NCBI GenBank assembly: GCA_048213135.1
Contig: PS015133.1
Location: 2,878-65,606, forward strand
Reading direction: 5' to 3'
From: Reclinomonas americana ATCC 50394
Taxonomy: Eukaryota
Length of the DNA stretch: 62,729 nt
Shown here: piece by piece, positions 409 through 59,410 of the stretch
Layout of the letters: each line of letters starts with the position of its first letter
Numbering within the stretch: position 1 is the first letter of the stretch
Position numbers and translations under genes: made by a program
The notes under the pieces: model-generated
Database searches by the model: none
The model's input: the letters and a program-made list of their open reading frames with translations, nothing else
Told to the model about the DNA's origin: nothing

Positions 409-9196
<8,788 letters not shown>

Positions 9197-9347: not shown

Positions 9348-12300
9348 TCAAAAGTCCTCCTCCTCGTCCTCAAAGTTGTACTCGATGGCGTCGCCATTGA
9401 CGGTGCTCTGGAAGGGTGCCAGGGAGGCCACGGCCGTCGCTGTCGTCGTACCACCAGTAGGGGTCTCGCCGCGCGGCACTGGTCGCTTGCCGACACGAGC
9501 AGCAATGCTGCTGCTGCTGCTGCCGTTGCCACCAGCACCGCTGGCACCACCGGCCAGAGCGCCTGCCGGCAAGTTCTCCTGCGATCGTCGGTGGGCGGCA
9601 CTCGTCTCCAACTCGCTCCATCGCGGACCCCGAGCCGATGTCGGCTCCTCGTCTCCTGGCGAGCCGACAGTCTCCAGCGCCGCCGTGGTCGAGCGCGACC
9701 GCGGTCGCTCAGTGACCTCTTGACCGTCGCCGTGCACCGGTGAGAACACCGGCAGCCGACTGCGTGGAGCCGACGGAGTGGCCGTGTTGCGACGCGATTG
9801 CGGGCGTGAGCGTGTTACGCGGCCCGATCCGCTGCCATTGGCCGAATCCTGTGGACCGTGATCAGCAATCAGGGAGAAACCTCTCCTCTTGTTTCTGCAA
9901 TAAACACAATCGACAAACCGGCTGCGGGATGTGTGATACACCACCCGGCGGCGGCGTGGCCGTCAGGCGATCCATCATCGTATCGCGCTCGGCCAGGTTG
10001 CGATCCAGGTAGTGCACAGTGAGGTCGAGGCGGCGCACCTCCTCGCGCAGATTGTGCACCTCCGAGTTGGCCTGCTGCTTCTCGGCCTCTTGCTTCGCCA
10101 GCTCCTCCTGCAGTCGGTGCAACTCGCTCTGGATCTCATTGATACGACGACGCTTCTCCTCCACCGTGCTCTCCTGTGCAGCACGCGAGAGTTGAGAAGA
10201 GCGATCAAAGATGAGGAGCGAAAGGGAGAGAGGAAGAGGAAGAGGACCTTGAGTTTCGAGGAAATGTACAAGTGTCGCACGCGCTCCTTGGTCTCCTGCG
10301 TGGACGACAGCTTGCCGCGCAGATCGCGATTGTCGGCCTCCGTTCTCCTCAGCGCGTCGTTCATCGCCTTTTCGGTCTTGCGCATGCTGGCCACCTCCTC
10401 TTCCATCTTGATAATGTACTTGAGGTCCTAGTGCGCACAAGACACACATATGATTTGAGTGACGACAACAGACATCAAAGGAGCACCGACGCATCGCACC
10501 TTGACGGTGGCCAGTCGGCGTCGCAGTGCATTCAGCTTCTTCTCCAACTCCTCACGCTGCTTCTCGGCCTCGGCGTTGAAGCCGGCCAGCTCTGTTTCCA
10601 GCGTCTGTACCTGGGCACGCAGTCGCTCCGCCTCGGCCACCGCCTTGCGTTCCGTCTGCGCTGCCGCCGCTGCCTTTTCCTCGGCCTGCGGTGATGCAAG
10701 GAGGGAGGGAGAGATTAAGAGACGACTTCGAATCATTGAAATGCTCTCTCTCTCGAGTCACACCTCCTGCTTCTCTTCCATTGCATCGTGCACTTGCATC
10801 TCGAGAGCCTTGGCGCGATCCTGCTCGCGGCGAAGTCTCTCTTCGAACGACGCCGTCAGCATGCGCTTGTCGGCCTCCTGTGCATCGAGAAGAGCGTGAG
10901 TACTTCGGGGTGACTGGGAAGGAGAATCGCCATGCCCCTACGCAACCCAATCATCCATCGACGTGGGTTTTGACTGGGCGGCGAGCTGCGCTCCACGCTT
11001 CTCGGCCTCGGCGACGGCAGCCGCCATGGCGCGTGAATGCTCCGCCTTGAGTTCGGCACGCAACCTGTCAATCTCAGTGCGCTTCTCGGCCTCCACCTGC
11101 CGCAAACGCTCCTCCGCTTCGTGTGTTCGTGTGAGATTCTGCGAGCTAACCCGCTCGGCCTCGGCCACCGCCACCTCCAGCGCCTCCTTCTCGCCACGCA
11201 GGCGGGTCACTGTCGGTGCCCACATGGGCGACGCCTCGCGGTGGGGCTCGGCAAACAGCTGACGCGGCAGCTGGCCGTACTCGGCGAGCATCTGCTGCTC
11301 GCGGCCATTTGTCGGCACCGGGGCGTTGGTGCCGTAGAACGCTGGGTGGGGGAAGGGATGGGGTGAGAAGGAGGAGGAAGGGGGGAAAGGGGGGAAAGGG
11401 GAAGGGGAATGAGCATGTGAGAGAGAGAGAGAGATTGGGTCTCACTCTGCGTGTCTGGTCGGCAGATAGAACGTAGTTACTCCAAGCACACCCCTCAACT
11501 ATCTCTCTCCCAATCGCGCGAGTGCAGAGAGAAAGAGAGAGAGAAATAGAGAGAGAGAAACTAGTGGATACTTAACGACTTTCTCACATCTTCCTCTCTG
11601 AATCCACAAGTCGACTGCTCAACTTAAATCTCTATCACATGCACACACGAGAGAGAGAGAGAGAGAGAGAACACGCTGCACTGCAAACACCCGCGTGCAC
11701 GCAACCTCGATGTCACACGCAGTACAACTCACCACCCTCTATGTCTCTCTCTCTTTCTCTGGCTCCTTTCCCAGTTCTTCTATCACTCTCCACTTGCTCA
11801 CTCTTGTTTCCTTTCCCTTTCCCGTTTCCATTCCCTCTTTCTCCCATCGCTGACGCAACTGTTCTCCGCCTGCTCGGCACCCGCACCGCGCGACTTGCAG
11901 CCAAACACCAAATCGATCCACCGATGCAAGTTTTGCGTGACAAACACGCTCTCCAGTGCCTCGCGGTTCCTGAAAATGTACTCGGCGGCGCCTGTGCCAG
12001 GATTGGNNNNNNNNNNNNNNNNNNNNTGATATTGAGATCAGCACACCAAAGGGGGAGTGAATTGGATGGTACAAGACGACGCAACTGCCAGCCCACGGCG
12101 GCAGCTCCACGTGGTTGACGCGCGTGGAGTTCTGTGTGACACCAAAATCGAGTCCGCTAGAGTTGAGCAGGAAACCACCGTTGCCCTCGTAGAACTCGGG
12201 AATGAGCTGTGGTGCGCGCAACACATCACGGCGTTAGCGTCTTGAGTGCCCACCACCACGCAGAGCAATCAAGAAGTCACCTCTGCGTAGTAGTCGTTTG

Positions 12301-13738
12301 TGCCAAACGCATTGCGCCAGAGCGATGGAATCGACTTGAACAGTCGATCGGCGTTGTCGAATTTGCCCTCCGAGTATTTCAGCGCCAAGTCGGGGCCTGT
12401 GTGAGATGTAAACATCAGCAGCTTGCGTCACGGATTATTGCCATCGAAGCGCACTCACGATCGCGCAAAAGGAAACCGACGAGAATCGACGTGTTCGAGT
12501 ACAGCGTGCGGAAGAGGAATCGAGAGTGTGCTTCGTCGCGCATCTCGGCACTTGCTCTCTGCGCACACCTGGTGAGCAACTTCCACACACAACAACACTG
12601 CAGAGACTTTTTTTTCGCGCATACGCACCCTCAAGTAAGCGAGGCGCTGCTCATTCAGCGCGCCGATTGGCTTGGAGAGGTCGCGGAAGGTGCGCGGATC
12701 GTCAAAATCGAGCTGCGGGCTCTGGTAATCGGCAATCACCCAAGGCATCACGGGGTACACGGCAAAGTCGTTGAAGGAGCGCGAGGCCAGCTGATTGACG
12801 GCCACCAGGTAGTCGTAGTTGCTGAGGGTGCCGCGGACCCACGCTTCGCACACCCACTGGCTGTAGCGCTGGCTGTCCATAGCCGTGCAGTCTGGTGGGG
12901 AAAAGGGAAAGGGGGAAGGGGAAAAGTGAGGAGGGGGAGGGAAAGAGAAGAGAGAGAGAGAGAGAGAGAGAGACAGACGTACTGGCAGACATACAGACAC
13001 ACATTGCACGCACGCACGCACGCACACATACAGAGAGAGAGAGATAGAGACACGCACATACACACAGAGAGAGAGAGAGAGAGACAAACAGACAGACATA
13101 CAGACGCATACAAAGAGAGCGAGACAGATGGATACCAAGAAATTCATGCAAAAGTCGGCATGACAGAACACTCGCTCGCCTCTCTCAAACACACTCATTC
13201 GCTCACACTTTCCCTTTTCCACACACCTGGCGAACGCATAATGCGATCATAGAACGATCCCTGATCCCGCGCCGAGTCAAACTGGAACAGCACCGAGCCA
13301 CCCGAGTTCAAAAACATGTCCAGTCGCAGCTCCTGATACAAGTAGAGCTGACGGAGGACCAGCTTCAGATCGGTGATGGCCCAACGCGAGGCCAGCGACG
13401 GACACGCCAGCGGCACGAAATGCAGCGCGGTGCGCGTCACGGCAAAGAGACCCTCCACATGCCCCTCCCGAGTGATGCGTGCACACATGGCCGTCGGATT
13501 CACCACCTCCTCTCGGCAGTCCTTCAGGTACTGAATCGCAGCAGCCTCGCGCGACGTGCGCAGCCACTGCCAGCGACGCAGGTGAGCAAGATGTCTCCAC
13601 AGAGCGCGAGAGCACAAGACCAACCTGAATCGCTGCCTCTGTCGTCGCCGCGCACAGCGTCTGCTTCAGCTCGCCCAGCAACGCCATCACATCGTCCGAC
13701 TCGGCCGACAGCACGCCAAACTTCTTCAAGCCCGGCTT
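9348..13738 (-). CDS. PH-BEACH domain protein (FAN/NSMAF-like core) with a coiled-coil and low-complexity C-terminus, 5'-partial, multi-exon
   Basis: PH-like exon (ARITREGHVEGLFAVTRTALHFVP...SVLFQFDS). BEACH hallmarks across spliced exons: WVRGTLSNYDYLVAVNQLASRSFNDFAVYPVMPWVIADY, FRDLSKPIGALN, GKFDNADRLF, ELIPEFY, VELPPWA, LHRWIDLVFG, EYGQLPRQLFAEPH. These are followed by E/R/A-rich coiled-coil exons and end in EDEEEDF-TGA at 9348. Confidence 0.88.
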
Positions 13739-21252: not shown

Positions 21253-23936
21253 CGTGCCGCACGCTGTTGATTCTCTGTGGAAAGTCATTGGCTGACTTTG
21301 CACTAGCGCGATGCGATGTGAGCGCAAGTTCTTTGGTTGCTTCTCATAGATGAAGAGAATGAGAGTGTGATGAATGCAGAAGTTCCTCTCGTCAGATCGT
21401 ACTGTCTCGTTATTGACGCAAGAGTCGTTGCCTTTGGAGAAGCAGTATGATCATTACGGCTGTCAGCATCGCTCTCAGAATTCAGGTCTTCTTGTGTTTG
21501 CGTTTCTTTTCAACTCATTTCGTGCTTTGACTTCTGATCCCTTGCACTTGCTCCTTGCACTCGCTGTGCTCCTTGCACTCGCTGTGCTCCTTGCTCTCGC
21601 TGTGCTCCTTGCACTCGCTGTGCTCCTTGCTCTCGCTGTGCTCCTTGCTCTCGCTGTGCTCCNNNNNNNNNNNNNNNNNNNNNNNNNNNNNNNNNNNNNN
21701 NNNNNNNNNNNNNNNNNNNNNNNNNNNNNNNNNNNNNNNNNNNNNNNNNNNNNNNNNNNNNNNNNNNNNNNNNNNNNNNNNNNNNNNNNNNNNNNNNNNN
21801 NNNNNNNNNNNNNNNNNNNNNNNNNNNNNNNNNNNNNNNNNNNNNNNNNNNNNNNNNNNNNNNNNNNNNNNNNNNNNNNNNNNNNNNNNNNNNNNNNNNN
21901 NNNNNNNNNNNNNNNNNNNNNNNNNNNNNNNTTGCTCTCGCTCTGCTCGTTGTTCTCGTTGTTCTCGTTGCTCCCGCTGTGTTCCTTGCTCTCGCCGTGC
22001 TCGTTGTTCTCGCCGTGCTCGTTGTTCTCGCCGTGCTCGTTGTTCTCGCCGTGCTCGTTGTTCTCGCCGTGCTCGTTGTTCTCGCCGTGCTCGTTGTTCT
22101 CGCTGCGATCCTTCCTCTCTCTGCTATCCTGCACTCACTCCCATGCACTCGCTGTGCTCCTTTCTCTCGCCGTGCTCCATGCTCTCGCTGTGCTCCTTTG
22201 TTGCTTACTCCCTGCTCGCCTTCTCCCTTCGCCTTCCCTTTCCCTTTCCATCCTTCTCTTTTCCCGCCCTTCCCCTTTCACCTTCCCTCACTCCTTCTCA
22301 TCCTGTAGTCCTCCACCGTCTACGGCGACGCCTCGGTCGCCTACGTCCCACCGGCGACGGCCGCGGCCTCCACGGTCCTGCCCGTGCCCACCACCCACCT
22401 GCGCTCACTCTTTGTCGGCAATATGCCGCTGGAGGCCGCCACCGAGGAGAACATGCTGGAGCTGTTTTCGTCGTTTGGCGACATTACGAACATCAAATTG
22501 CGCCCGGTGGTAGGCAAGCCCTACAAGTACGCCAAGGTCACCTTCCGTCTGCACCGAAGCGCGGAGGAGGCTCTGAATGCCACCAACGGTTTCATGTTTC
22601 ACGGGCGCGCTCTGAAGGTGGAGTGGGACAATCCGCGTGCCAAGTTGGCGGCCGCCACCACGGGCACCGGCGGTTCGACGGCAGTCGGTCCGGCCAACCC
22701 CATGGGCGCTCGTTCGATGGGCCCGCCGCCTGGATGGAGCAGCGACTCGACGTCGCTTCTGCCACCACCGTCGCCGTACTGGCCGCAGCAGTACGCGGGA
22801 GAATCACCGACGCAATATGCCCCTGCACCACAGGAAGTGGTGGTGGGCTCACGGCGTGCTCCCACCGCCACTCCGTATGTGGTGAGTGTGTCATTGTGCG
22901 CGCAGGGAAGTTGATCAGAGATGCTGACTGTTCCTCGCAGCCTGTCGGTGTCAATCCGTACTCGCGACCATCTTCTGAGTCGCTAGCCACCACCACAACA
23001 CCCACGCCGTCGCCAAATCAGTCTCCTCTACCGACTTTTGTTGGCGGTGGGGGCGCCGCCGCTGTCGCACCCGCCCCAAATCCCGCGATGCCTCCGCCCA
23101 ACAGCACCGAGTTGTATGTGGGTAATCTACGTGCCGACTCGATCACTGCCGAGGCGTTGCGCGATCGCTTCGGCCGCTTTGGCGAAATTCGCGAGATCAA
23201 CGTGCGTGTGTGTGTGGGTGTGGCGAGACGCTCTGCTGACTTTGCCGCTTATCTTACGTGTCGCCGGCACAGATCTTCAACCCGAAGCGGTCGTCGAAAA
23301 TCACCGGCGCCAAGATCACGTTCTTCCTGCGACAGGCCGCTGAGCAGGCCATGTCTGCCATGCGCAACTCCACTGCCTTTGGCGGAGAACCCATGTTGCG
23401 TCGCACTCTGTCGGCGAGAGCGCCTTGCGAATTTCGTGTGCTGATTGTGCATTTCTTCCCACAACAGCAAGGTTGAATGGTACGGCTTCACCTCTGGCAG
23501 CAGCGCTCCGCAGCCGTCGATGGAGGACGTGGTGATGGGAGGGAGAGAACAGCCGCCACCACCTATTGATGGGTGAGCAATAGATGAGAGGTCGGCGATG
23601 CGCTCGTCGGACGATCAAACTAACTCTCTGTGTGTCATGTACTTTTTTCAATCACAGCTCCAACATTGAAGAGGTGCGTGAAGCCCGTCCTCGTCTCCTC
23701 GTGTGTGTTTGACTACTCACTGGCTTCGGTGCAGACTGTCCGCGCTCTGATGGACATGGAGTTGTGCGATGATCCGCAGCGCGTTCGTGATGTTCTCATG
23801 ACAGTCGGAAACTTTGATGTGAGTTTCCCATCGCCGTCTGTCCCCCTCATAGTCTTCGCCTCACGTTCCTCTGTGTGCTTGCTCGCAGCGTGCCGTGGAC
23901 TACTTCATGCACGAGCTCACTGGCGGTGGCCGGTGA
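20036..23936 (+). CDS. NYN (LabA/DUF88 PIN-like) nuclease domain, two RRMs and a C-terminal UBA-like domain, multi-exon
   Basis: ATG at 20036 (MSTPASADSAG). NYN motifs LHIVVDGSY..VDYEAL, QKGGDVYIA and IAVVAGDGDFYP. RRM1 SLFVGNMP...FSSFGDITNIKL...GRALKVEW; RRM2 ELYVGNL...FGRFGEI...GGEPIKVEW. Terminal VRALMDMEL...VLMTVGNFDRAVDYFMH resembles UBA; TGA at 23934-23936. Confidence 0.8.
21545..22110. repeat. 18-bp unit minisatellite in an intron, split by a gap
   Basis: Units ctccttgc(a/t)ctcgctgtg before the gap and gttgttctcgccgtgctc after it. Confidence 0.85.
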
Positions 23937-34994: not shown

Positions 34995-35276
34995 TCTCCG
35001 TTACGTACCAACTCCTAGTTCAATCCCTCCTCGCTTCCACAGACCACTCACAGTTTGCCAACAGCGCCCGACTACGAGCCGGTGGGCAGCTTGGACGACG
35101 AGTAGTAAACATGCCGAGTAGATGATTCACACAACAACGTCGTTGTTCATTGTCACAGCATTCTACACGCCCTCCCTTGATGGCAATACCACTCTCCGCT
35201 CTCTCCGTGCGACCCAGCCCGTCCACTCTCCGTGGGAAGGTTACGGCGTGGACGGGCTGTGATGGGCCGCCATTGT

Positions 35277-35336
35277 GTCAGGCACCAGCCAGTGCACACC
35301 AAAACAGGGGGGTGGCCTTTGCGGCTGAGCCTTCAT
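35277..35336 (-). promoter_or_regulatory. Putative eukaryotic SECIS element (type II) in the 3' UTR of the selenoprotein gene
   Basis: The minus strand reads ATGAA-GGCTCAGCC-GC-AAA-GGC-CACC-CCCCTGTTTT-GGTG-TGCACT-GGCTGGTGCC-TGAC. It has an AUGA...GA core, a ~9-bp helix II (GGCUCAGCC/GGCUGGUGCC, one bulge), AAA 12 nt after AUGA and a CACC/GGUG mini-stem. It starts ~87 nt downstream of the stop codon. Confidence 0.78.
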
Positions 35337-35422
35337 ACGTGAGAGAGACAGAGAGCGAAATGCACACCAGAGCGGGCAGGGGGAATGCCAATGAGTGTGT
35401 GTGGTGATGACTGCGGAGATCG

Positions 35423-36990
35423 TTAGATCAGCATCACCACTGTGGCAAACGCCACAGCAATGGCCGAGGACACCGCAAAGACGTAGTTGGTCTCGCGGCG
35501 CTTCTGGTCACGGAATTCGCGCATGTGGCGCGGCATCGGTTTCTTCCCAGTACCCTGTGTTTTTTTTTTGGGGGGGGAGTGAGGTGCGGTGTATGTTGCT
35601 TTCGATGGATTGTAGAGACGCAACGTCGGGGTTCCATTGCTGGAAAGAGGAGAGGGGATGATAGTGAGCGACAGTATCAACAAAATGAGATCGTCAAGTA
35701 AAACACACGCTCACCCCGCGGTAAATCATGCCTCATTGGCCCTTCTGACCCATCCAGAACACGGTGAAGCCAGAGCCAAACGTCTGCAAGGAGGATGAGT
35801 GCCAACAACTCACTTCACATCTTGTAGCGACACACAACGCAACGAAAAAGAGCGCAGCGCCGCGCCACCACAGCTCGCGCTGTCCGTGCCACAGGTACGA
35901 CATGTAGAGCGAGGTCAGCACCAGCGCAATGCCGGCGTAGAAGCGGATCTTGCGGTCGATGGAGCAGGTGATGTAGCCGCGCTGCGGGGGAGGAGGAGAA
36001 AGGGTGAGGACGAGGGTGAGGAGAAGGAAGGAAAGAGGAAGGAGAGGAGGGTGCGAGAAGGAAGGTCAAGGATGGCGGGATGAAGGAGTTGGGGGTGTGA
36101 GGGAGAAGGTGTAAGAGTGAGGAAGCAGTCGGAAGGGCAAGGAAGGAGGGATGAAGGAGCTGGGGGGCTGAGGGAGAAGGGAAGAGCGAGGGAGAAGGGA
36201 CGGGTGAAGGAGCAGAGAACGGCAAGGGAGAAGCGAAGTGCGTGGACAATGGGAACGGGCGAGATAAGAGTACAGTGCGAGGTAGAAGACACGAGAGGAA
36301 GGGCGGAAAATGCGACAAGTGCAAGCATGCGAGTGCACAGCCAGTCACAATCAACAGCCAATAGACATAGTTCAGCAAGGTAAGAGGAGAGGTTGTCGCA
36401 GAACGCAAGGTGATGACAGAAAAGACTGCACGTCGATGACGGTCATGAAGGAGGAGAGAGTACAGGATCAAGGGAGGACGCTGCAACAGGATGCAAAGGC
36501 ACAAGAGAAGAGCACCGCATGCCATTTGTCAATCACATGCAGAAGGTGACACGAGAAGAAGAAGAAGAAGAAGAAGAGTAGACACTGCACGGAGAAATTG
36601 CAAGCACACAATGCATGCAAGCAATCAATCAATCAATCACGCAAAGAGAGAGAGAGAGAGAGAGTAAGGCACATGCACGCAAGGAGAACAATGTCTCTCT
36701 TGTTTATGACTCTCTCTTGTGTGTGCAAGTGTGTATGTGTGAAAGAGAGAGAGAGAGAGAGTGAGTGAGAGAGTGAGTGTGAGAGTGTGAGACACACATT
36801 GGAAGAACAGTGTCTCTCTCGCCCTCTTGGGACACACTCTCTCTCTCTCTCTCTTGTGTGTATGTGTGTGTGAGAGAGAAAGGCTGACACACATATCACT
36901 CTCTCTCTCTCTCCTCCTCACTCCTCACTGCACCTTGAGGTTATACTCGGGAGTATCCGGCACATCTGCCGCATCCACAGCACCACTCAT
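35423..36990 (-). CDS. Putative membrane selenoprotein (MSP-like), 136 aa, Sec at the in-frame TGA 35735-35733
   Basis: Exons 36990-36934, 35981-35844, 35783-35715, 35639-35625 and 35554-35423, all joined by phase-0 GT-AG introns, give MSGAVDAADVPDTPEYNLKRGYITCSIDRKIRFYAGIALVLTSLYMSYLWHGQRELWWRGAALFFTFGSGFTVFWMGQKGQUGMIYRGQWNPDGTGKKPMPRHMREFRDQKRRETNYVFAVSSAIAVAFATVVMLI-TAA. It has three hydrophobic segments and a downstream SECIS. Confidence 0.8.
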
Positions 36991-37079: not shown

Positions 37080-38739
37080 ATGTTTTCTCGCGGCGCTCTT
37101 CATTGCCGTCGGCTTTTGTCGACAACGTCGACGTTTTCGGCAAAGGGGATCCGAGTGCCTACTGCTGGTTTCATTGCCATTGGCAATGAGGTGCTCACTG
37201 GCAAAGTGCACGATGTGAATACGTTTAATCTCGCAAAGTGTGCGTGTTCTCTCTGTGTGTGTGTATGAGAGAGAGAGAGATGGGAAGGGCGTAGAGTTGT
37301 CTTTGGTTGTCGCTGTTGCATTCTTCCGTCAATCACTTCATCAATCTTCAGCTTCTTTACGTGTTTCTCTTCATCTCCTCCTCTTTCTGCACTGTCTTCT
37401 TGATCTTCCAGTCTGCTTTATTCTCCTCCTCCTCCTCCTCCTCCTCCTCCTCCTCCTCCTCCTCCTCCTCCTCCTCCTCCTCCTCCCATCTTTATTGTTC
37501 CTCTCTTTCTTTTATATCATCGTTGTCTTGTTCTTCTTCTCCTTCTTCTCCTTCTTCTCTTTCCCTCCTCTTCCTCCTCCTCCTCTTCTTCCTGATCTTC
37601 TTCTTCATCTTCATCTTCTTCTGCTCCTCCTCCAATCCTCATAGTTCTTCTCCTTGTACTCCACCATCGTTGTGTTGTTCCTCTTCTTGTTCCTGTTCGT
37701 GTTCTTGTTTGTGTTCTTGTTCTTCTCCCGCTCCTCCTCCTTCTTCTCTTTCTTCTCGTCTTCCTCCTCCCCTCCTGCTTATCCTCCTCCTCCTCCTCCT
37801 CCTCCTCCCTTCCCTCCTCTCTCTCTCTCACACATCTCCCTTCCCTTCCCTCCCTTCCCTCCCTTCCCTCTCTTCTCCCTTCCCCCTCTCTCTCTCAGTC
37901 CTCTTCAAGCAAGGCGTCGACCTCCGCCGCGTCTCCGTCATCCCCGACGACCGCGCCGACATTGTGGACACGGCGAGGCGATTCAGCGAGCGCTTCGACT
38001 TTGTGTTCACCTCCGGAGGCATTGGACCCACTCATGACGGTCTGCTTTCTCTCTCTCCCGTCTGCCATGTGTGTGTCGTCCGGCTCTCATATGCGCAAAA
38101 AGATATTACGTACGAGTCGCTGGCGGCGGCATTCGACGTGCGGCTTGCCTACGACGATCGCGTGCTGCGGAAAATGGAGCACTACTACAAGCCGCGGAAG
38201 ATCGACGTGTACAGCAACCTGAACGTGAAGCGCATGGCGTTGCTGCCGATCGGCTGCGAGATTCTGTGGACGGAGGACTTGTGGGTGCCGCTGTGTGTGG
38301 TCAACCGGAACGTGCACATTCTGCCCGGCATCCCCTCGCTGTTCATGCGCATGATTGAGGCGCAGGCGGAGCGCTTCGTCGGGCCACCGAAGACGCGCCA
38401 GCTGCTGTACACGTTGAGTCGGGAGTCGGCGATTGCCGATGCGTTGCGCGAGGCCGAGGCCAAGTTTGATGTGGCGGTCGGTGAGTGGGGACAGAAGGGG
38501 GAAGAAGGGGGCGCTGCAGGGCGAGGTGGTGAATGACTCGGCAGGGTGCAGGTTCGTACCCAAAGTACGGCGACCCGGCGCAGTTTGGCTACGCGGTGAT
38601 GGTGTCGGTGGAGAGCATTCACGAAAAGGCTGTGCGCGATGCCGTGTCGTACATTCGCAAGAAGAACCCGGATCTGACGCCGGAGATGCCGTTGCCAGTG
38701 CCGGCGGCGGCGGCGGCGGCGGCAGGAGCGGCAGCATGA
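37080..38739 (+). CDS. Molybdopterin-binding domain protein (CinA / FAD synthase MPTb-like), probable mitochondrial presequence, 4 exons
   Basis: Exons 37080-37239, 37899-38039, 38103-38480 and 38552-38739. Motifs IAIGNEVLTGKVHDVN, VFTSGGIGPTHDDITYE, NVHILPGIPSLF and VAVGSYP; the N-terminus MFSRGALHCRRLLSTT is Arg/Ser/Thr-rich and lacks acidic residues. Confidence 0.9.
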
Positions 38740-54855: not shown

Positions 54856-55379
54856 TTGGTGAATGCATCGAGAGGTGAACGAACGCAGGGAACCCATCTG
54901 CTGCTCATCTTCCGTTGTCTGTGAGGTATGTACGAGTAGCCTATGTTGCAAGAAGTCGTCGTGCCTTGTCGAAATCAACATGCATGCACAATTGCAATCC
55001 GACACTTGCATTCCTGAACTGCCTTCCCCTGAGCATGCGTTCCCCCACTCGCCTTCCATCTCTGCCGCATTTTACCTTACGCGCATCTGCACTACCCTAA
55101 TCATTCACCGGCTCCACACTTCCCGCGGGCGGGCCCGGCAAAAAGTCGAAATTTCATTTGTGTCCGGTCGTCGTTCGAATCGCCTCGGGCCCGCTTCCTC
55201 AAACAAAATTTTCTTCACACACTGCACGAGAGAGAAGAGAAGGCCACAACACACACCTAAGAGACCGCGCTCTTTCACACACACGCACACGCTCTCTGTC
55301 NNNNNNNNNNNNNNNNNNNNCACGCGACTACATAACAGCTGGCGATCGCGTGTACTCATGATCACCTCGCGCCACGCAG

Positions 55380-57534
55380 CTGACATGCGAGCATGTGTTT
55401 TGCGGGGATTGCATCCTGAAGTGGCTGGCGCAGGCGTCGACGTGCCCCGTGTGTCGCCATCGTGCGCACATGGGTAACGTGGCGCCTGTCGATCGCGTCA
55501 TTGGGCAGCTCATTGGCGATCTGCGTCTGCATTGTGGCAACTGGGAGCCGACGCGACCCGACGACGCGGCCGTGTCGTGTCCGTGGGTGGGCGAGTTGTC
55601 GGCGGTCGATGCACACATGAATGAGTGCGGCTACGTGCGGGTTCGCTGTGATCATTGTCGGCGGGAGCACAGGCGACGGGAGGCGCGGGAGCATGCGGAG
55701 GTGTGTCATCGACGACCGGTGCCGTGCACGTACTGTGGGGAGATGGTGCCGCGGGAGCGCATGGCGTTGCATTGCGATGCCGAGTGCACCTATCTCCACG
55801 TACAATGTCCGAATGGGTGCGGTCGTCGCGTGAAACGCGAGGATGTCGGCGCGCACCTCGAGCAGGTGAGAAACGGGGAAGCGGATTTCATGGCGCTTTC
55901 GTGTCACACTGACTTGTTTTCTTGTTCTCCCAGGCCTGCCCGCTGCAAGAGGCACCGTGCGCCTACGTTGAATTCGGTTGCTCGCATCGCGGTCTCCGCG
56001 TGGATCTGCCGAACCACGAGAAGGCGGCCGCCGCGCATCACCTGCAACTCGTCACCATCAACATGAGCGAGGCGCTGCAGAACCAGGACGAAGTCATTTC
56101 GGTGCTGCGTGCTGAACTGGCGTCCAGAGACAGCCAGTTGCGTGCATCCACTCTCCAACTCTTCTTCTTTCATGCATTGAGATCTCATTTCTTGCACACC
56201 ACAGGATCGATCAGCTGCGCCGCGATGTGGCCGCCATCAGCGAGCTGCTTCCGGCACTGGAGCTGGTGACGGGGCGGCGGCGCATGGTGCAGGCGTCGCC
56301 GAATAACTCGGCTGTGCTGCTGGCCTCCTCCGAGTACTCTGGCAACACCGCACCATCAGCGTCCTCGCCGTCGCCAGTTCCTGCGCACACCGCCGTCCGC
56401 ACCGACCGACCACCCTCTGGCCGCTCGCTCTTTCACCCGTACAACGCGGGCCAGTCGCTAGCCGCCGCCATGTCGTTGCCACCACCGCCACCACCACCGC
56501 CGCCACCTCCGCCGCCACCTCCGCCACCACTGGTTGCCGCTCCCTCGGCGGCAGCCGGGCACGCGCATTTGCATCTGCAGAACAACCACCACCACCACCA
56601 CCACCACCACCGCTGCGATGAGCAAGACTCTGGGTCGTCGTCGTCGTCCGCCGTGGTGCCGCCAGCGCGGTCACCGTCGTGCCAGGCCGCCCTCCGCGAG
56701 CTGCAACAGGAGACTCGCGAGTTCACTCGACAGATTCGCACGCACCAACAGCAACAGCAGCAACAACAACAGCAGCAGCAGCAGCAGTCACAGCAGCAAC
56801 AAGCGCCTCCTCCACCGTCGCCGCAGTCACCGCGCCAGCGCCGACACACAGTCGCTCATGTCGATTCGGCGGCGTCGTCTTCGTCGTCGCCAAACGCACA
56901 CAATGCTGTTGGCGCGAGCGGCTCCTCGTCGCCACCCCCCTTCGAGGTAACGGAGAGCGTGAAACTGTGTTGGAGTGTCGACCACGGTTGCAACTTGCAC
57001 TACCGCGACAATCTGCGCACGCTCTCGAACACCAACTGGCCCGGTGGCACCTCCGTGTGCACCGACCTGATCATGACGGTCGGCAATCCGGACCTGTCGC
57101 CTCTCGCCGCCGCCAGCACGGTGTTCACCACCTTTGCCGACATGCTCGACAATGCTGCTGCCGTCGGCGGCAGCAGCGGTGGTGGTGGTGTCGCGTCGTC
57201 ATCCTCGTCACCGTCACCCCGTCACACCCGTCCATACGGGGCGCCACAGCGTGGCACCTTCTCCATGGAGGTGGGCGTGACGTCGACCGGCTTCATCTGG
57301 GGCGCCGCGATTGGTGTGGTGACATTCCATCAGTTTAGTGCGGAGGGCATGTGGTGCGGCAAGGTGCCGACCAGCTACGGCTACTGGAGCAACGGCAGCG
57401 TGTTCGCGTGCACTGGCCGCGACACGGACGAAGACACCGCATCGTTGCCGCTGCCGGCCCTGCGCGCGTCGATCGAGGTCTCGGACGACTCGGACAGCGT
57501 CAGCGGCGTGAGCGACGACCTCGCCTCGGGCAGT
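55380..57534 (+). CDS. RING finger, TRAF-type zinc fingers, coiled coil, P/H/Q-rich linker and SPRY-like domain; putative E3 ligase, both ends in gaps
   Basis: Exons 55380-55865, 55934-56136 and 56205->57534. LTCEHVFCGDCILKWLAQASTCPVCR is the second half of a C3HC4 RING. CPWVGELSAVDAHMNECGYVRVRCDHC and HCDAECTYLHVQCPNGC are TRAF zinc fingers. FSMEVGV...AAIGVV...GMWCGKVPTSYGYWSNGSVF is SPRY-like. Confidence 0.82.
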
Positions 57535-58286
57535 NNNNNNNNNNNNNNNNNNNNNNNNNNNNNNNNNNNNNNTTGGAAAGTTGGGCAAGGGGGTTTGTCT
57601 TTGAAGTTACTTCACGACACCAAACTGCTTGATGTCCTCAACCTCCAGTCATACACGCAGGGGGGGGTGTAGGTCGGTGTATTAATACTTTAAAAGAAAT
57701 AATGCCCGGCATTCCGAAGCAAAAAGAAATAATGCTGCTCGAGAAAAACATATAATGCCTCGCTGCAAAGTGCCTAGAAACGGCAGGAAACGTGGTTCAA
57801 ATTCGAAGCGGCTGCCTTTTTGTGCCTAGCATGAACGTGTTGGGGGACCTGACGCAGCAGCTACGTAGGTGACCAGGTTCTACAAGCGCCCGCTGTCCGA
57901 GGACAGTCGACAAGTTGGCTTTGGGGAGAAACAAAGCGTCGAAGTTCACAAGTCAATCTGTCTGATCGATCGCGACGGAACTGTAATTCACCGCATAGCA
58001 GCCCTATTCTGGGAGAAAAAAATAGCGGCGCGCTCCGCGCGCAACACTTTCATAGAAGTGCTAGTTTTTTTACATAGAGAGGGGCGCGCGCGCGTGGAAC
58101 TCGACTTTTACGGCTTCGACGATGTGAAATTTCAAGTGTCGCGAAGGCTGCGCTGGTGGCAGACGCATGCGGACGAGTGTAGGGGTCGCTTGGGCAGCAG
58201 GGGCCGAAAAGTTATAATGCCAGGCCAAAAGAAAAAATACTTTGTCCCCCACCCCCCCACGCAGGTAACGCACCCAGGAGAACGCA

Positions 58287-59410
58287 ATGTCAATCAAGGT
58301 GTGGCGTGCATGTTCTTTGCTTGTGCTATGCACCTCTCTCACTGTGACACACAGGTCTTGAGAGGGCACACCGCGCCAGTGCACTGTGTTGCCGTCACTC
58401 CCGATGGTCAGCGCATTGTGAGTTGCGGTCGAGACAGCACCGTGCGTGTGTGGTCTCTGGCGAGTGGAGCGCAAGTGCAGCAGTTCGAGGGACACAGAGG
58501 GTGGGTGAACTCTGTCGCTGTCGCACCCGACGGTCAGCACGTTGTCAGTGGCGGTGATGACAAGACCGTGCGTGTGTGGTCACTGGCGAGTGGGGAGGAG
58601 GTGCTACAGATGGAGGAACACGCTCAGTATGTGAACTCTGTTGCCATCACTCCCGACGGCAAGCTCATTGTGAGCGGGAGCGCTGACCGGACTGTGCGCG
58701 TGTGGTCCATGGCAAGTGGTGAGGAATTGCGAGTGTTGGATGGACACGCATATGCGGTGCAGTGTGTCGCCATCACGCCCGACGGCCAGTACGCTGTGAG
58801 TGGGGGTGACGACTTTGTACTGCTCGTGTGGCCACTGCTGTCACGTGATGAGGCGGTACGGCGGTTGGAGGGACACGCGAGTTACACGGAGTCCATCGCC
58901 GTCTCCCCCGACGGGTGTCACGTTGTGAATGCGGGCAACGACGGCGTGGTGCGTGTGTGGTCGCTGGCGAGCGAAAAGGAGGTGCGGCGACTGTACGAAC
59001 ACACTGGCGCGGTACACGCTCTCGCTTTCACTCCCGACGGCCAGTACTTTGTGAGTGCAGGTTTGGACAGAACAATACGCATGTGGTCGCTGGCGAGTGG
59101 GGAGGAGGTGCGACGGTTGGAGGGGCACGCTGATTGGGTACAGTCTGTCGCCATCACTCGCAACGGCCAGCACATTGTCAGTGGCAGTCGTGACGACACG
59201 GTGCGTGTGTGGTCGAGTGCATGCGGCATTGCTTGCTTGGAGCTCGACTGCGTACGATCGGGGTTGTTGGCCGTGCAGGAGATGCAAGATGAAGAGGAGG
59301 GCGCGGAGGATTCGCGGTGCCTGCCCGAGCTGGTACTGCGTTGTTTCATCGTCGAGGAGGCCGAGGTCGTGGTGCATCGGTGCCTTGTTGATCCTGACTT
59401 GTCTTGGTGA
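58287..59410 (+). CDS. WD40-repeat protein (7 highly similar repeats plus a short C-terminal tail), 2 exons
   Basis: Exon 58287-58298 (MSIK), intron 58299-58354, exon 58355-59410. Repeats follow the pattern GH...V..VAVTPDGQ.IVSG..D.TVRVWSLASG. The start is supported by the same exon/intron layout in the adjacent paralogue. Confidence 0.9.

Follow-up and report, generated by a model that had tools for sequence, protein, structure and literature searches.

We analysed a 62,729-nucleotide (nt) stretch of the genome of Reclinomonas americana ATCC 50394 (contig PS015133.1 of GenBank assembly GCA_048213135.1, positions 2,878 to 65,606 of the forward strand), hereafter the window. On its minus strand, between window positions 36990 and 35423, lies a small gene for a predicted membrane protein whose spliced reading frame contains a single TGA codon. 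We propose, with a probability of about 0.7, that this locus is a true eukaryotic selenoprotein gene in which the UGA is read as selenocysteine (Sec). The UGA would be read in this way because the 3' untranslated region (3' UTR) contains, about 90 nt from its start, a selenocysteine insertion sequence (SECIS) stem-loop that recruits the Sec-specific elongation machinery. An earlier sequence-only reading of this DNA had described a selenoprotein gene truncated at its UGA and had mentioned no SECIS. The SECIS-like element is new in the present analysis and, with the right core, the right spacing and the right strand, it lends that description support. The product is probably a new member of the eukaryotic UGA/SECIS selenoproteins, with a distant DUF2892-like module.

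The spliced frame opens at an ATG at 36990 and closes at a TAA at 35425-35423. The TGA at 35735-35733 is in frame with the upstream open reading frame (ORF), which ends in FWMGQKGQ, and is followed in the same frame by GMIYRG, as had been read from the sequence before; its local context is K-G-Q-U-G-M. GT-AG boundaries are found at 36933/35982, 35813/35784, 35714/35640 and 35624/35555, giving the gene model below (a slash marks the edge of an exon).

36934-36990, minus strand: exon 1, 57 nt, 19 codons from the ATG at 36990; donor AAG/GTGCAG
35982-36933, minus strand: intron 1, 952 nt, GT..AG, rich in GA/CT/CA microsatellites
35814-35981, minus strand: exon 2, 56 codons; Cys25, an xIDRxxRxxxG motif, two hydrophobic helices, Cys69 and Cys74
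35784-35813, minus strand: intron 2, 30 nt, GTGAGT..TTGCAG; open in frame (ten codons, VSCWHSSSLQ)
35715-35783, minus strand: exon 3, 23 codons with the in-frame TGA; acceptor CTCCTTGCAG/ACG, donor GGG/GTGAGC
35733-35735, minus strand: in-frame TGA, read as Sec92 of the 146-residue model
35640-35714, minus strand: intron 3, 75 nt, GTGAGC..TTTCCAG
35625-35639, minus strand: exon 4, a 15-nt micro-exon, QWNPD
35555-35624, minus strand: intron 4, 70 nt, GTTGCG..ACACAG; A-rich acceptor
35423-35554, minus strand: exon 5, 43 codons and the TAA; basic stretch GTGKKPMPRHMREFRDQKRRETN, then a 20-residue hydrophobic helix

The exons total 441 nt and give a protein of 146 residues in which Sec is codon 92, and the TGA is the only one in frame among the 146 codons. 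The earlier figures of 136 residues and Sec82 were both ten too low; the numbering of Cys25 was correct. The GT-AG junctions, the micro-exon, the final hydrophobic helix and the TAA are likewise present in the sequence. The introns had also been called clean, which does not hold for all of them: intron 2 is only 30 nt long and open in frame, and intron 4 has the donor GTTGCG and an A-rich acceptor.

Several features of the individual exons bear on how they would be joined. Exon 1 is the sole in-frame ATG exon upstream of exon 2, and in the exon-2 ORF no ATG precedes RGYITC; with a codon log-odds score of +5.1 and a G+C content at third codon positions (GC3) of 0.53, it is the weakest of the exons. 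GC3 is 0.80 in exon 2, 0.75 and 0.83 in exon 3 (upstream and downstream of the TGA, respectively) and 0.77 in exon 5. The short intron 2, with a codon log-odds score of -0.4, may be retained as ten codons, which would give a 156-residue product, and the TGA keeps its frame whether this intron is spliced or retained. Intron 3 is typical of the window in both length and signals. Exon 4 is a putative exon and could be optional, as the frame survives its skipping. Exon 5 has no start of its own apart from an internal Met that would give 37 codons. An unspliced read-through of exon 4 to a TGA at 35508 was considered and dropped (codon log-odds -4.6, GC3 0.56).

As a separate observation on intron 1, a palindromic (GA)n/(CT)n microsatellite at 36743-36855 matches many microRNA models of plants and animals below threshold. 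One of them, MIR533, reaches 42 bits against a gathering score of 80; the matches are an artefact of composition.

Coding potential was scored with a table of 1684 codons, taken from seven ORF pieces of the window that have Pfam support; the null consisted of 8000 random stop-free stretches of the window, real genes included. The 54 codons that follow the TGA have a codon log-odds of 15.6, a score matched by 3.6% of the null stretches. Exon 2 scores +14.1 bits (0.25 bits per codon) and exon 5 scores +12.0 bits (0.28 bits per codon), with the other two frames of exon 5 at -5.5 and +1.7. The sequence after the TGA is thus as codon-biased as the exons before it. For more than 1 kb downstream of the gene there is no Pfam-recognisable coding sequence, which leaves room for a 3' UTR.

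TGA is a normal stop in this organism. The sequence-only reading had listed five genes ending in TGA (at 9348, 14995, 24191, 38739 and 59410). The codon is present at all five positions, and a real gene end is supported at two of them, namely 59410, where a WD40 ORF ends, and 9348, where an acidic tail is followed by non-coding-looking sequence. Because TGA serves as an ordinary stop elsewhere in the window, a reassigned genetic code does not account for the codon within our gene.

Beyond the TAA, the coding strand carries the following element:

35266-35345, minus strand (the coding strand): SECIS-like element of type 2, starting 87 nt past the TAA

Its core consists of AUGA at 35336-35333, 12 nt, AAA, 38 nt, and UGA at 35280-35278. 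The primary SECISearch criteria are given as NTGA, 10-13 nt, AA, 15-39 nt and GA (PMC2375036), and the 12- and 38-nt spacers of the element lie within these ranges. In a constrained fold, helix II of the element has 10 bp and one bulge, and the mini-stem has 6 bp; the AAA sits in an internal bulge with the mini-stem next to it, which is the type 2 form. The Rfam model SECIS_1 aligns over its full length (1-64) with AUGA, AAA and UGA all in place, at 17.4 bits. The E-value reported for this match is 1, counted over 331 nt on both strands (662 strand-bases) and multiplied by 4227 families; for SECIS_1 alone, by our own arithmetic, about 0.05 such matches would be expected in the whole window and less than 0.001 per kb of one strand.

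A pattern scan of our own, crude in design and covering both strands of the whole window, returned two matches, of which the element at 35345-35266 is the better, with a score of 11. Across 40 Markov-simulated windows, the mean number of matches was 2.08 at a score of at least 8 and 0.05 at a score of at least 10, and none reached 11. The other match in the real window (8635-8596, minus strand, score 10) is antisense to a plus-strand WD40-repeat gene (7828-8843) and was rejected as chance. No RNA family was found in the whole window by Rfam at gathering score, and no tRNA by ARAGORN.

A perfect inverted repeat of 12 bp (window 35215-35259; CAGCCCGTCCAC / GTGGACGGGCTG, with a 21-nt loop) follows the SECIS-like element on the minus strand, beginning seven bases beyond it. 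This repeat could act at the 3' end or in stability, and it leaves less space for a SECIS helix I.

Taken together, these features suggest the following course of expression. The mRNA would be spliced from four or five exons, and its SECIS would recruit SBP2 and eEFSec for the reading of UGA92 as Sec. The product would be a three-pass membrane protein of about 146 residues (156 if the 30-nt intron is kept), in which an N-terminal motif and two helices, forming the DUF2892-like part, are followed by a Sec-bearing loop and a C-terminal anchor helix. The three membrane segments noted earlier are recovered by Kyte-Doolittle analysis, at residues 33-49, 55-78 and 125-146, with a peak of 2.41 within the last. 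The model has cysteines at 25, 69 and 74, and 54 residues, including one helix, come after Sec92. The predicted loop of about 46 residues (79-124) is Gly-rich and basic and holds Sec92 in the context K-G-Q-U-G. By the positive-inside rule this basic loop would be cytosolic, which would place the N-terminus, Cys25, Cys74 and Sec92 at the cytosolic face; the C-terminus would lie outside or in a lumen. We hypothesize that Sec92 acts as a redox-active selenol that forms a selenenylsulfide with a nearby cysteine, most likely one of those at the cytosolic face. Cys74, at the edge of the membrane, would be our guess for the partner; the Cys25/Sec redox pair put forward by the sequence-only reading would be pure conjecture.

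Searches of several collections were made for relatives of the spliced protein. A word-index protein search gave one candidate and scored none. HMMER against 1.84 billion representatives, a search that the sequence-only reading had proposed as a route to homologues, returned two matches, both spurious by their Pfam content: one is a repeat protein, the other a subtilase that carries Ig domains. In the large protein collection, neither method found even a truncated form of the protein. A scan of JGI metagenomes yielded 506 pattern matches, of which none was confirmed by tblastn; a sequence search of the PDB returned only designed TIM barrels and antibodies, at E 0.007 or worse; and NCBIfam gave no match.

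The sole Pfam match, even at E up to 10, is that of exon 2 to PF11127, YgaP-like_TM (formerly DUF2892), at an E-value of 0.0076; the match scores 16.8 bits, where the cut-off is 25.3, and spans positions 7-47 of the 66 in the profile. For comparison, bacterial members were fetched with G-W-C-P-L-Y, which we take to be a motif of the DUF2892 family. The motif scan gave 102 loci and 41 clean small ORFs, of which 40 were used after one (L076) had been removed as a false positive. When six of the fetched genes were tested against PF11127, all six proved to be members, at 77-88 bits. A local profile of the 40 members scores 8.7 bits on our protein, over the N-terminal motif only.

The protein and DUF2892 share the xIDRxxRxxxG motif, the helix that comes next and a WW-containing loop that leads into helix 2. 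The invariant Cys of DUF2892, at about profile position 52, corresponds by spacing to Cys69/Cys74 at the end of helix 2. Global alignments disagree on this point, since two of three set Cys74 on the invariant Cys and the third sets Sec92 there. The protein has no G-W-C-P-L-Y, and over residues 50-112 the motif profile yields -1.8 bits, a value equalled or exceeded by 47.5% of 2000 shuffles. The bacterial homologues with Cys at the Sec position that the sequence-only reading had proposed are therefore not borne out by DUF2892: its invariant Cys falls by spacing at Cys69/Cys74, and in the Sec region the motif profile does no better than chance. A bacterial DUF2892 protein has two helices and is complete at 60-70 residues, whereas our protein extends beyond this module by a 46-residue Sec-bearing loop and a third helix, with Sec92 about 18 residues past the DUF2892-like part. 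In the literature, we found no paper on a DUF2892 or YgaP selenoprotein, judging by titles and the starts of abstracts, and none on eukaryotic DUF2892, judging by title; of the papers listed on membrane selenoproteins, most concern VIMP/SelS.

Among known selenoproteins, the protein was compared with MSP and with SelK and SelS. MSP is described as a predicted membrane selenoprotein that has two Sec residues and occurs in Ostreococcus, Chlamydomonas, Volvox and Dictyostelium (PMC2375036, Lobanov et al., 2007), and a later study presents the family as found almost only in its Sec form (PMC7539508, Jiang et al., 2020). By these descriptions, our protein resembles MSP as a small predicted membrane protein of a unicellular eukaryote that contains Sec and has no known function. 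It differs from the two-Sec MSP so described in having one TGA; Cys25, Cys69 and Cys74 are present, so a change from Sec to Cys is possible. If MSP entries are among the 1.84 billion representatives, HMMER did not match them at an E-value of 0.001 or better. A relation of the protein to MSP, as suggested in the sequence-only reading, is unproven.

SelK and SelS (SELENOK, SELENOS) are membrane selenoproteins of the endoplasmic reticulum with a G-G-U-G end. Like them, the candidate is a small membrane protein with its Sec in a Gly-rich, basic and probably cytosolic segment, in a G-x-U-G context. Unlike in SelK and SelS, the Sec is internal, with 54 residues after it rather than lying 1-2 residues from the C-terminus, and there are three helices instead of one. 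The Pfam profile SelK_SelG gave no match at E up to 10.

A number of observations weigh against reading the UGA as Sec. At 30 nt, intron 2 is implausibly short beside the 63-75-nt introns found elsewhere in the window. The splice signals of intron 4, including its acceptor, are weak; such sites are nevertheless used in this organism, as the homology-verified intron of a neighbouring gene (described below) has similarly weak ones. There are 44 single-intron alternatives that delete the TGA yet reach the same TAA, the best of which joins the strong exon-2 donor to the exon-5 acceptor. As no relative was found in the searches above, there is no Cys/Sec alignment and no conservation is seen across the TGA. 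On the RNA side, the SECIS_1 score is half of the gathering score of 35, helix I is weak, with three of five pairs in the Rfam alignment and none stable in the constrained fold, and the fold energy of the whole element is no better than that of shuffles (z = +1.1), a test that is uninformative for a kink-turn element.

These points would be accommodated in different ways by three other explanations. Were the TGA an ordinary stop, the gene would encode a two-helix, DUF2892-like protein of about 91 residues, or 101 if the 30 nt are kept, and what follows would be a coding-looking 3' UTR containing a SECIS-like hairpin by chance. Such a protein would have the two-helix form in which its bacterial counterparts are complete; other genes in the window do end in TGA, the SECIS match lies under the Rfam threshold with a weak helix I, and no homologue shows conservation beyond the TGA. 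This explanation nevertheless requires two independent coincidences. One is a splice-compatible, codon-biased and helix-encoding frame after the stop, when only about 4% of a null that includes real genes scores as high; the other is a SECIS match on the right strand, less than 100 nt from the alternative stop, at a score reached in none of the 40 simulated windows. The truncated protein would, in addition, end one residue before a G-x-U-G context. We consider an ordinary stop unlikely. The main mRNA might instead skip exon 3, or otherwise splice out the TGA, for example by joining the donor at 35813 to the acceptor at 35555, and so encode a protein that lacks Sec, has about 118 residues and keeps the same three helices. 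This join is in frame and combines the strongest donor (GTGAGT) with the acceptor that the Sec model itself uses, and skipping could be favoured if the 30-nt intron 2 is too short to splice, the others being 63-75 nt. Short length alone forces no skipping, however, as keeping the 30 nt preserves the frame; exon 3 has a strong acceptor, a strong donor and a GC3 of 0.75-0.83, and a SECIS-like element would be useless to a Sec-free mRNA. We regard a TGA-free main transcript as less likely still than an ordinary stop.

Finally, the locus could be a decaying or non-functional copy, or the true codon could be TGC or TGG and the TGA a mistake of assembly or base calling. The protein is without detectable relatives, and the base call at the TGA rests on a draft assembly with 16 runs of N in the window. 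Against this, only one stop lies in frame, every exon keeps its codon bias and no splice site is broken. It would also be one more coincidence if an error had produced precisely TGA upstream of a SECIS-like element. We judge this the least probable of the three.

Should the UGA indeed be read as Sec, the gene is one that standard annotation would miss or truncate. It would add a membrane selenoprotein to an almost unsampled eukaryote and would imply that the lineage keeps the Sec machinery. It would also tie the bacterial DUF2892 membrane domain, whose function is unknown, to a eukaryotic selenoprotein, and a selenol beside the DUF2892 cysteine would suggest that the job of the family is thiol/selenol chemistry at the membrane face. 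More tentatively, and with low confidence, we suggest that the protein is the first member of an uncatalogued family of eukaryotic membrane selenoproteins, in which a DUF2892-like module keeps its cysteine and gains a cytosolic Sec loop and a tail anchor. Such a family would stand in a protist lineage without a close relative in public protein collections and would use a type-2 SECIS almost without helix I.

The remainder of the window contains 16 runs of N, of 20 to 857 bases and 5122 in all. Since several of these runs interrupt long ORFs, the gene models of the window are incomplete. Apart from the immediate neighbour of the candidate, Pfam identifies the following genes:

12458-13665, minus strand: BEACH/PH_BEACH protein
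22309-22911, plus strand: RRM protein
55362-56063, plus strand: RING and TRAF-type zinc-finger protein
57869-59407, plus strand: seven-bladed WD40 protein, ending in the TGA at 59410

A homologue search with the WD40 ORF returned generic repeat proteins only.

The immediate neighbour is divergent from the selenoprotein candidate, with the two start codons about 165 bp apart:

37155-38536, plus strand: FAD-synthase-like gene (MoCF_biosynth, PF00994)

A short first exon is followed in this gene by an intron of about 650 nt, mirroring exon 1 and intron 1 of the candidate. Alignment to four homologues also fixes an intron of 63 nt at about 38040-38102, whose donor is GTCTGC and whose acceptor is AAAAAG. 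In a collection of 5.8 billion clusters, the best matches to the ORF at 37895-38536 (plus strand) have 45-47% identity; among named matches, those of green algae are the best (43-47%), and those of Phytophthora have 36-39%. Judged by these identities, the organism seems to be without a close sequenced relative in the collection, and the green-algal matches may be a weak hint to its lineage.

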